The notes under the pieces are model-generated. The model saw nothing but the letters and a program-made list of their open reading frames with translations, had not been told where the DNA came from and did not search any database. A program made the position numbers and the translations under genes. From contig JAPDJY010000034.1 in assembly GCA_029258835.1 (NCBI GenBank), positions 1 to 64,000 of the forward strand: a stretch of DNA of 64,000 nucleotides, in the 5' to 3' direction. Origin of the DNA: Thermoproteota archaeon (lineage in GTDB: Archaea; Asgardarchaeota; Jordiarchaeia; Jordiarchaeales; Freyrarchaeaceae). Position 1 is the first letter of the stretch. Every line of letters starts with the position of its first letter. Below, in pieces: positions 23,628 to 59,057 of the stretch.

Positions 23628-24994
23628 TCACGCCGTCCCTTCTCTCCAACCCTTCAGGTAAGCCACCTGTTCCTCCGTCAGTCTTTCAAGCTCTATACCA
23701 AGAGCCTTACACTTCAATTCTGCTACAGTCATATCTATTTCCTTAGGTATGTCTAGCACCACGTTTCCAGCCTTCCCAAGTTCTTCTCTATTTTTAACGA
23801 TCCATTCGACAGCCAGCGCCTGGTCGCTGAAGCTCATATCCATTACCGAGCTGGGATGCCCCTCAGCTGCGACAAGGTTTACTAGTCGTCCTTGGGCAAG
23901 TAAGTAAAGTCTTCTACCGTTTCTTAACGTGTACTCCTCGACGTTAGGACGTATCTCCTCCTTCTTAACGGAGAGCTCCTCCAAGTCCTTTACATTGATC
24001 TCCACATCAAAATGTCCTGCATTAGCTAAGATCGCCCCATCCTTCATTTTCTCCATGTGTTCCTTCCTTATCACATCCTTACATCCAGTCGCGGTGATGA
24101 ATATGTCGCCTATTTCAGCTGCCCTATGCATTGGCATTACATCTATTCCTTCAAGAGCTGCGGTGAGAGCCCTATGAGGATTTATTTCACTTACTATAAC
24201 CCTCCTAGCGCCGAGACCCTTAGCGCGGAGAGCTATTCCGCGTCCGCAATGGCCATACCCTGCCACCACGACAACCTTACCTGCTATTAGCTCCGACGTC
24301 GCCCTCATTATGCCATCAAGTGTGGACTGCCCGGTCCCCCATATATTATCGAATTTGGGCCCCTCTAAAGGGAGGTTTCCCATTTTGTGGGGGTGTCGTT
24401 CGTGGCAAGTATCGGGTAAGGAAGAGTGCCCTCCTCAGCCATGGCTCTAAGACGTATAACTCCAGTAGTCGTCTCCTCAGCTCCACCCCAAACACTACTC
24501 CACCAGTTCCCCTCTTCTCCAATAACTCCCTTAACTATCTCCACTTCCGCTCCGCTCTCTCCGTGTTTAAGCTTAGCTATCGTTGAAACAAGATCTGCTC
24601 CGTCATCTAACGTCACGTTAGGCTTAGCCTTGATCACGTTGCCTATCGCTCTATAGTACCCTTCAGTATCCATCCCATACCATGCAAAGGTGTGGATTCC
24701 ATCCTCAACCAGCGCAGCTGCGACATGGTCTTGCGTTGATAACGGGTTTGACGCGCACAAGTATACTTCGGCACCCCCAGCACGCAGCGTCCTAACTAGA
24801 ACGGCTGTCTCCTTCGTGACGTGCAAGCATGCCCCGACGACAACTCCTTCTAACGGCCTTTCTGAAGAAAACCTCTCTTTGATCATCCGCAGAACAGGCA
24901 TGTGGTTTTCAGCCCATCTAATAGCTTTCCTCCCTTCTGACGCTAAGCTTAGGTCTCGAATTTCATATTTTTCTCCTCTCTGAGTCTGAACCAA
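23628..24994 (-). CDS. ahcY: S-adenosylhomocysteine hydrolase; two exons (24994-24377, 24353-23628), 447 aa after splicing
   Basis: [27 protein letters not shown] in exon 1; [39 protein letters not shown] in exon 2; exons are 618 and 726 nt, both multiples of 3. Confidence 0.93.
24354..24376 (-). other. Putative 23-nt BHB-type (HBh') intron in ahcY mRNA
   Basis: UGGG-AA/A-CCUC-ccuuuaga-GGGG-CCCA-AA/U; cuts after the 2nd nt of each bulge join TGG GAA to TTC GAT AAT. Confidence 0.85.
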
Positions 24995-58928: not shown

Positions 58929-59057
58929 GCCTCGGTGGTGTAGCCCGGCCAAGGTTACGCTGATAGCATAAGGGGCTTAGAGGCTACGTCCTCGCCCAAT
59001 CGACCCCTTGACCCGGGAACCACATGTTCGGGACTTCAAATCCCGGCCGAGGCACCA
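58929..59057 (+). tRNA. tRNA-Glu(UUC), three introns (D-loop 58952-58964; 34/35 58979-58999; 53/54 59018-59034), CCA encoded
   Basis: GCCTCGG/CCGAGGC-A acceptor, GGTGTAG D stem and 4-nt variable loop of Glu; spliced arm AGGGG-CTTTCGA-CCCCT. Confidence 0.9.

Follow-up and report, generated by a model that had tools for sequence, protein, structure and literature searches.

A probable bulge-helix-bulge intron within the coding sequence of ahcY in Jordarchaeia, a lineage of Asgard archaea

We analyzed a stretch of 64,000 nucleotides (nt), here called the window, that corresponds to positions 1 to 64,000 of the forward strand of contig JAPDJY010000034.1 (assembly GCA_029258835.1), deposited as a Thermoproteota archaeon and classified by GTDB within the Asgardarchaeota (Jordiarchaeia; Jordiarchaeales; Freyrarchaeaceae). 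The host genome is a metagenome-assembled genome (MAG) of 2.72 Mb in 91 contigs, 94.7% complete and with 6% contamination. Positions 24994-23628, on the minus strand, hold ahcY, coding for adenosylhomocysteinase, or S-adenosylhomocysteine (SAH) hydrolase, the enzyme that clears the by-product of S-adenosylmethionine (SAM)-dependent methylation. The nearest public loci belong to MAGs of Candidatus Jordarchaeum, Jordarchaeia and Freyarchaeota, i.e., Asgard archaea. The gene is seen as two open reading frames (ORFs) in different frames: the first (24994-24365) ends at a TAG inside a short insert, and the second carries on in another frame. This insert, ACCTCCCTTTAGAGGGGCCCAAA (window 24376-24354, minus strand), is preceded by the codon GAA (Glu) and followed by TTC (Phe). 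The original prediction, made from the sequence alone, had described it as a 23-nt intron of the bulge-helix-bulge (BHB) type in a two-frame ahcY, with coordinates that proved exact. From 5' to 3' of the gene, the features of the locus are the following.

24377..24994, minus strand: ahcY exon 1, 206 codons with a TTG start, ending in NDTPTKWE; PF05221 positions 1-216.
24388..24393, minus strand: possible distal outer helix, CCCCCA strand (exon 1), predicted when the fold is constrained or computed at 55 °C, and also by the minimum-energy folds of relatives.
24379..24382, minus strand: predicted central BHB helix, 5' strand UGGG (exon 1), 100% paired and invariant in seven sequences.
24376..24378, minus strand: 5' bulge AAA, with the predicted cut between 24377 and 24376.
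24354..24376, minus strand: candidate BHB-type intron of 23 nt, A CCUC ccuuuaga GGGG CCCA AA, with an in-frame UAG (exon-1 frame) at 24367-24365.
24360..24375, minus strand: intron hairpin CCUC/loop/GGGG (alternatively CCUC/GAGG), with an 8-9-bp stem at the same place in relatives.
24356..24359, minus strand: predicted central BHB helix, 3' strand CCCA (intron), perfect 4-bp pairing with UGGG.
24353..24355, minus strand: 3' bulge AAU, with the predicted cut between 24354 and 24353.
24336..24341, minus strand: partner of the possible distal helix, UGGGGG (exon 2), its letters fixed by Trp-Gly codons.
23628..24353, minus strand: ahcY exon 2, 241 codons plus stop.

The helix, bulges and stem were present as originally claimed. 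A central helix of 4 bp (UGGG/CCCA) has a 3-nt bulge at each end, the two on opposite strands, and the motif is oriented as in pre-tRNAs. On the intron side, the helix is followed by a 4-bp stem formed by CCUC (24375-24372) and GGGG (24363-24360), including one G-U pair. The tRNA-splicing endonuclease (EndA) cleaves each bulge between residues 2 and 3, a rule stated for the introns of cbf5 (PMC2738675); applied to the ahcY motif, it removes exactly 23 nt, at a codon boundary. The predicted junction in the RNA joins AAATGGGAA directly to TTCGATAAT, and the spliced product would have 206 + 241 = 447 amino acids (aa), collinear with the intron-less orthologues, as had been anticipated. In the protein, the predicted junction TKWE/FDNIWG (the slash marks the splice site) is identical in the uninterrupted orthologues of a sister genus. 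Membership in the AhcY family (PF05221/PF00670) is indicated by collinearity over the full length, including the TK..FDN segment, with 446 shared alignment columns and both exons conserved. The same rule would also give a collinear product in all the relatives. With letters drawn at random from the window composition, a 23-mer at this site would combine a Watson-Crick 4-bp partner for UGGG, two 3-nt bulges and an adjacent stem of at least 4 bp with a probability of 7e-5, which rises to 2e-4 with a 3-bp stem and to 4e-3 if G-U pairs are allowed in the helix.

In two DNA runs, from separate studies of 2017 and 2023, contigs crossed the insert without a gap. It is real DNA and not an assembly error, the first thing that the original prediction had wanted checked against genomic data. 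We therefore give next to no weight to an artefact of assembly or sequencing, or to a recent strain-specific mutation without meaning: a host MAG of 91 contigs with 6% contamination invites such suspicion, but the insert is unchanged in both of these runs, and six other assemblies, one of them closed, have an insert at the same site.

The state of the gene bears on a second alternative. A frameshifting insert might have become fixed, leaving either a pseudogene or an AhcY made of two assembling polypeptides, one N-terminal of 209 aa and the other containing the C-terminal part, initiated at the ATG in AAATGGG or at a GTG in the insert. We consider a split or broken gene of this kind unlikely. 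The original prediction had named a second, intact ahcY, with relaxed selection on this copy, as grounds for rejecting the intron. We found instead that ahcY is the sole PF05221 locus of this ca. 95%-complete genome. Compared with four species of the sister genus, nonsynonymous divergence (pN) was 0.07-0.15 per site with synonymous sites saturated (0.74-0.95), in both exons alike, and no further stop or frameshift was found beyond the insert. With a single copy and strong protein-level constraint on both exons, ahcY does not look like a decaying pseudogene, and its retention in seven species (see below) contradicts that version as well. The two-polypeptide version can point to an ATG at 24383 in frame with exon 2, to the exon-2-frame ATG or GTG that relatives too have in or just before the insert, and to spliced RNA not being seen in the available RNA contigs, which cover 24593-24994. 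The break also lies near what we take to be the boundary of the substrate-binding and NAD-binding domains of AhcY. However, the conserved TK..FDN segment is itself cut by this break.

We compared ahcY in 60 related genomes and 80 further loci. Within the same family, the four species of the sister genus had no insert (4/4). In the other family of the order, of which one genus was sampled, all six species, including one with a closed genome of 3.6 Mb, had an insert at the identical nucleotide, with lengths of 27, 29, 29, 30, 30 and 30 nt. No insert was found at this site in the other archaeal loci (76 of 76, from Heimdall-, Borr-, Odin-, Hel- and Bathyarchaeia, Archaeoglobi and others). A core, TGGG-AAA on the 5' side and CCCA-AAT on the 3' side, is common to all versions, and every insert holds a stop in the exon-1 frame, UAG in the host and TAA in the relatives. 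Between these fixed ends, the host inner stem CCUC/GGGG is unrelated in sequence to the CAUAAACAC/GUGUUUAAG stem of the sister family. Within the latter, the second pair is A.A, A-U or G-C, the third U-A or U-G and the eighth A-U or G-U, and the loops differ in both sequence and length. In the alignment of the seven sequences, 94% of cells pair, versus 19-50% after a shift of the partners by 1-3 columns. The BHB is the minimum-energy fold in three relatives (z of -2.5, -2.8 and -1.5), and the proximal outer helix has two A-U pairs in most relatives. The structure has been kept while sequence and length changed, as the intron reading had led one to look for in relatives, although the shuffle test of this pairing is weak with so few independent lineages.

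A 28-nt version, ACATAAACACCCAGTGTTTGTGCCCAAA, was seen in an environmental contig from the same sample (run X1, record 3, aligned at window 24375..24406), which belongs to a second Jordarchaeia-like organism. Its stem has A-U and U-G at the positions that vary among relatives.

These comparisons also bear on translational recoding, in which the ribosome would pass over the insert by bypass or frameshift, like the hopping in T4 gene 60, with the hairpin as signal. The break is soon followed by a stop codon and the gap contains a hairpin, which would suit such an event, yet we regard it as very improbable. The matched codons and fixed gap of a T4 gene 60-type bypass were not found: GAA stands before the gap and AAA or CCC-AAA before the landing site, and gaps of 23, 27, 28, 29 and 30 nt would require a different event in each species. 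The EndA rule, on the other hand, fits the motif to the nucleotide in every case. Since the insert lengths cover all three frame classes, no protein-level reading fits all of them. A split gene, for its part, leaves unexplained why an RNA motif of helix, bulges and pairing stem is conserved while its length, frame and sequence change. Stop-codon recoding with pyrrolysine or selenocysteine, which PMC9723677 reports for the class Jordarchaeia, was rejected as well: an insert of 23 nt changes the frame, and in the relatives the stop is TAA.

In the closed genome of the sister family, ahcY comes in four pieces, separated by three inserts (coordinates of locus L231; add 1875399 for G006:C1).

L231 1667..1612, minus strand: 56-nt insert, CCGG-AAU-[long stem]-CCGG-AAU, a canonical BHB in the minimum-energy fold.
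L231 1528..1500, minus strand: candidate intron of 29 nt at the site shared with the host insert.
L231 994..804, minus strand: 191-nt insert, CCAG-UGA-[stem CCACAUG/CAUGUGG]-CUGG-UAA, a canonical BHB in the minimum-energy fold.

Removal of all three by one cut rule gives an AhcY of 446 aa that aligns from end to end with that of a relative, at 83% identity and with 0 gaps. A search of these introns, including the 191-nt one, gave no match in Rfam. As a split gene, this ahcY would need to function in four pieces, one of them only ca. 29 aa long, and an insert of 191 nt is far beyond known ribosomal hops. Either explanation, splitting or recoding, would have to operate in three different ways within one gene.

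A trace of the motif may also be visible in codon usage. Just 5' of the intron, the codons for Thr-Pro-Thr-Lys-[Trp]-Glu (ACC CCC ACA AAA TGG GAA, window 24378..24393) include five degenerate ones that are essentially identical between the host and the sister family, when codon identity at conserved residues has a gene mean of only 0.36. They form the second-ranked window among those scored (naive p of ca. 0.006). In the intron-less sister genus, the codons ACC CCC ACA AAA GAA vary freely. This pattern suggests, and agrees with, a constraint at the RNA level on UGGG, on the bulge AA and on the distal CCCCCA/UGGGGG helix; under a split gene, the synonymous constraint in exon 1 would be left unexplained.

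The genome encodes both a splicing endonuclease and a ligase that could process such an intron. There are two EndA paralogues (PF01974), in the regions C1:12233-12481 and C6:39796-40056, an alpha-like one with Tyr, His and Lys, which we take to be the catalytic triad, and a beta-like one without the His. The latter (C6:39796-40056; L353 862..1788) ends an open frame of 308 codons whose N-terminal ca. 130 residues are of low complexity and rich in Ser, Thr and Pro, and its true start may be further downstream. The ligase RtcB is encoded with a profile score of 607 bits. Asgard EndA has been described as an (alpha-beta)2 type with an L1 loop and a broad specificity that includes relaxed BHBs (Hirata et al., PMC5829648), and in Freyarchaeia 92-95% of the tRNA genes hold introns, often at non-canonical positions (Valentin-Alvarado 2024, PMC11291895).

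One such intron lies in the window itself, in a gene for tRNA-Glu(UUC) that spans 58929..59057 (plus strand). It has 21 nt (58979..58999, plus strand), is located between anticodon positions 34 and 35 and reads GGGC-UUA-GAGG..CCUC-GCCC-AAU. Its excision gives the loop CUUUCGA with the anticodon UUC. The likeness to the ahcY insert is close, with a 4-bp GC-rich helix, A/U bulges, a 4-bp stem and the same kind of end, GCCCAA/U. Its outer helix is of ca. 1 bp; the original prediction had noted such a short outer helix in ahcY and in tRNA introns alike, and both cases bear it out. Because the tRNA-Glu gene is ca. 129 nt long, it probably holds further introns. ARAGORN and Rfam, run over the whole 64-kb window, gave no match, and no tRNA was called by ARAGORN.

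A second protein-coding gene of the host has a similar motif. In hypD, on contig C36, the main frame lacks the first 28 profile positions, and a strict BHB of 17 nt is found on the minus strand at C36:2555..2539 (L355 2478..2462), with a CGGG/CCCG helix, the bulges ACA and AAG and a 3-bp stem. The gene reads TGC GGG AC[A GCT TCCC AGC CCCG AA]G CAT GAG CAT, and removal of the bracketed letters restores the CGTHEH motif. A census across the genome of BHB motifs that, once removed, would fuse two open frames gave 8387 real versus 9140 decoy cases, and 739 versus 866 under stricter rules. The census does not discriminate, so we give no count of mRNA introns for the host genome. Loose and core DNA patterns of the intron, searched against the genome and the metagenome contigs, gave chance matches and no new ahcY introns among the matches listed.

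Two metatranscriptome runs match exon 1 at 100% identity and a depth of 2-3.5 (contigs covering 24593-24828 and 24910-24994), which may include DNA carry-over. One contig of an RNA library (run X24) loops from 24994 back to 24910 by way of 18 additional letters, which may reflect an error of assembly or be connected with the 5' end of the transcript.

Several observations weigh against splicing in ahcY. The strict hBHBh' form, which needs 2 bp or more in each flanking helix, is not present in the host, where a lone A-U pair makes up the proximal outer helix, with a 6-bp helix farther out, and only the relaxed form applies. Folded by itself at 37 °C, the host sequence has a competing structure as its minimum-energy form (z of 0.14), and the central helix has a probability of ca. 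0.1, rising to ca. 0.4 at 55 °C; at that temperature the central helix with its bulge is the minimum-energy fold, with CCUC/GAGG as the inner stem. Given this competing fold, we do not take folding energy as support for the host sequence. Formal covariation is weak, with one pair changed on both sides and 100 of 500 shuffles reaching the observed values, and four of the six sister-family species are near-identical, which leaves effectively ca. 4 independent lineages. For these reasons, the case rests on the geometry, on the position and on stems that are equivalent although unrelated, rather than on a covariation statistic. The contigs of the RNA libraries end short of the splice junction (24593-24994 only). 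Finally, a spliced or intron-less AhcY of the host type was not found in a collection of 5.8 billion proteins, where the best full-length match was 88% identical (sister genus) and the best match to junction-spanning fragments of 66-210 aa did not exceed 72%; this result is no evidence either way on splicing.

Taking both sides into account, we think it very likely that the 23 nt are an archaeal BHB intron in the coding sequence (CDS) of the single ahcY, and that the mRNA would be cut and re-joined by the tRNA-splicing enzymes. The interpretation originally put forward is thus strengthened by a site shared among seven species of two families, an invariant core and the presence of EndA paralogues and RtcB. 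In the mechanism that we envisage, UGGG of exon 1 would pair with CCCA of the intron in the pre-mRNA, exposing the 3-nt bulges AAA and AAU. The first bulge would be closed by the intron hairpin, and the second, weakly, by one A-U pair together with the distal CCCCCA/UGGGGG helix. A heteromeric EndA (alpha + beta) would cut each bulge between its second and third base, and RtcB would ligate the exons to give UGG GAA/UUC GAU, the 23-mer probably being circularized. Only the spliced mRNA would encode the 447-aa enzyme with an intact TK..FDN active-site segment, and translation of the unspliced one would stop at the UAG after 209 codons.

In the ahcY tree, the host clusters with the intron-less genus (support 100/100), apart from the intron-bearing genus, which is recovered as a clade of its own (99/97). 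The history could be a single gain in the ancestor of the order followed by one precise loss in one genus, or two gains at the same nucleotide. Both gain and loss have been proposed for the cbf5 intron (PMC2738675).

The pre-mRNA intron of cbf5 is known from Crenarchaeota, in Desulfurococcales and Sulfolobales (Watanabe 2002; Yokobori 2009, PMC2738675), and resembles the ahcY insert in several ways. It is a short BHB-like intron in a CDS, within a catalytic motif and mostly of the unconventional (relaxed) form, it is cut by a hetero-oligomeric EndA between the second and third bulge residues, and its patchy distribution reflects gain and loss. Our case does not belong to the cbf5 intron family, defined by the catalytic Asp codon of cbf5 and by these two orders, since the host gene is ahcY, of central methyl-cycle metabolism, and the organism one of the Asgard Jordarchaeia, with up to three introns per gene in a relative. 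Splicing of cbf5 was proven by cDNA and in-vitro cleavage, whereas for ahcY we infer it. Besides cbf5, the only BHB intron reported in archaeal mRNA is, by the account of Schwarz 2020 (PMC7714728), that of Haloferax volcanii HVO_1309, also processed by EndA and seen after excision as a circular RNA, but its 46 nt lie in the 5' untranslated leader, and the CDS is uninterrupted. Closer in lineage, presumed enzymes and motif style are the non-canonical tRNA introns of Freyarchaeia and Atabeyarchaeia (PMC11291895) and other Asgard tRNA introns (bioRxiv 10.64898/2026.10.13.758758); in ahcY, unlike these, the host is the CDS of an mRNA and splicing would set the reading frame. In a text search, neither source mentioned introns in mRNA or in protein-coding genes, and a full-text literature search for BHB or mRNA introns in Asgard archaea, Jordarchaeia and Freyarchaeia gave tRNA and rRNA work only. 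We propose that the mechanism is that of the crenarchaeal cbf5 intron; what is new is the gene, the phylum and the multi-intron state.

The original prediction had also drawn a parallel with eukaryotes. In HAC1/XBP1, a short mRNA segment is excised without a spliceosome and the ends are joined by a tRNA ligase (RtcB in metazoans), with a change of frame. That system differs from the BHB case in its endonuclease, Ire1, in its RNA motif and in being regulated by stress. Any regulation of this style in ahcY is speculation, and nothing points to regulated splicing here.

What is at stake is a central metabolic gene, for the sole SAH hydrolase of the host, that has an insert in seven Asgard species, among them one closed genome with three. 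If the splicing is real, gene callers would mis-annotate such genes as frameshifted or truncated, distorting the metabolic reconstructions made from Asgard MAGs. We lean toward a broader picture, in which Jordarchaeia, and possibly Asgard archaea more widely, would have genome-wide micro-introns in ordinary protein genes, spliced by EndA and RtcB, with several per gene possible, gained and precisely lost between genera and with a preference for conserved motifs, so that core metabolism would depend on tRNA splicing. A population of this kind would be an intron-exon organization of genes that needs no spliceosome, and it would bear on how intron-bearing protein genes are gained and lost in close archaeal relatives of eukaryotes.

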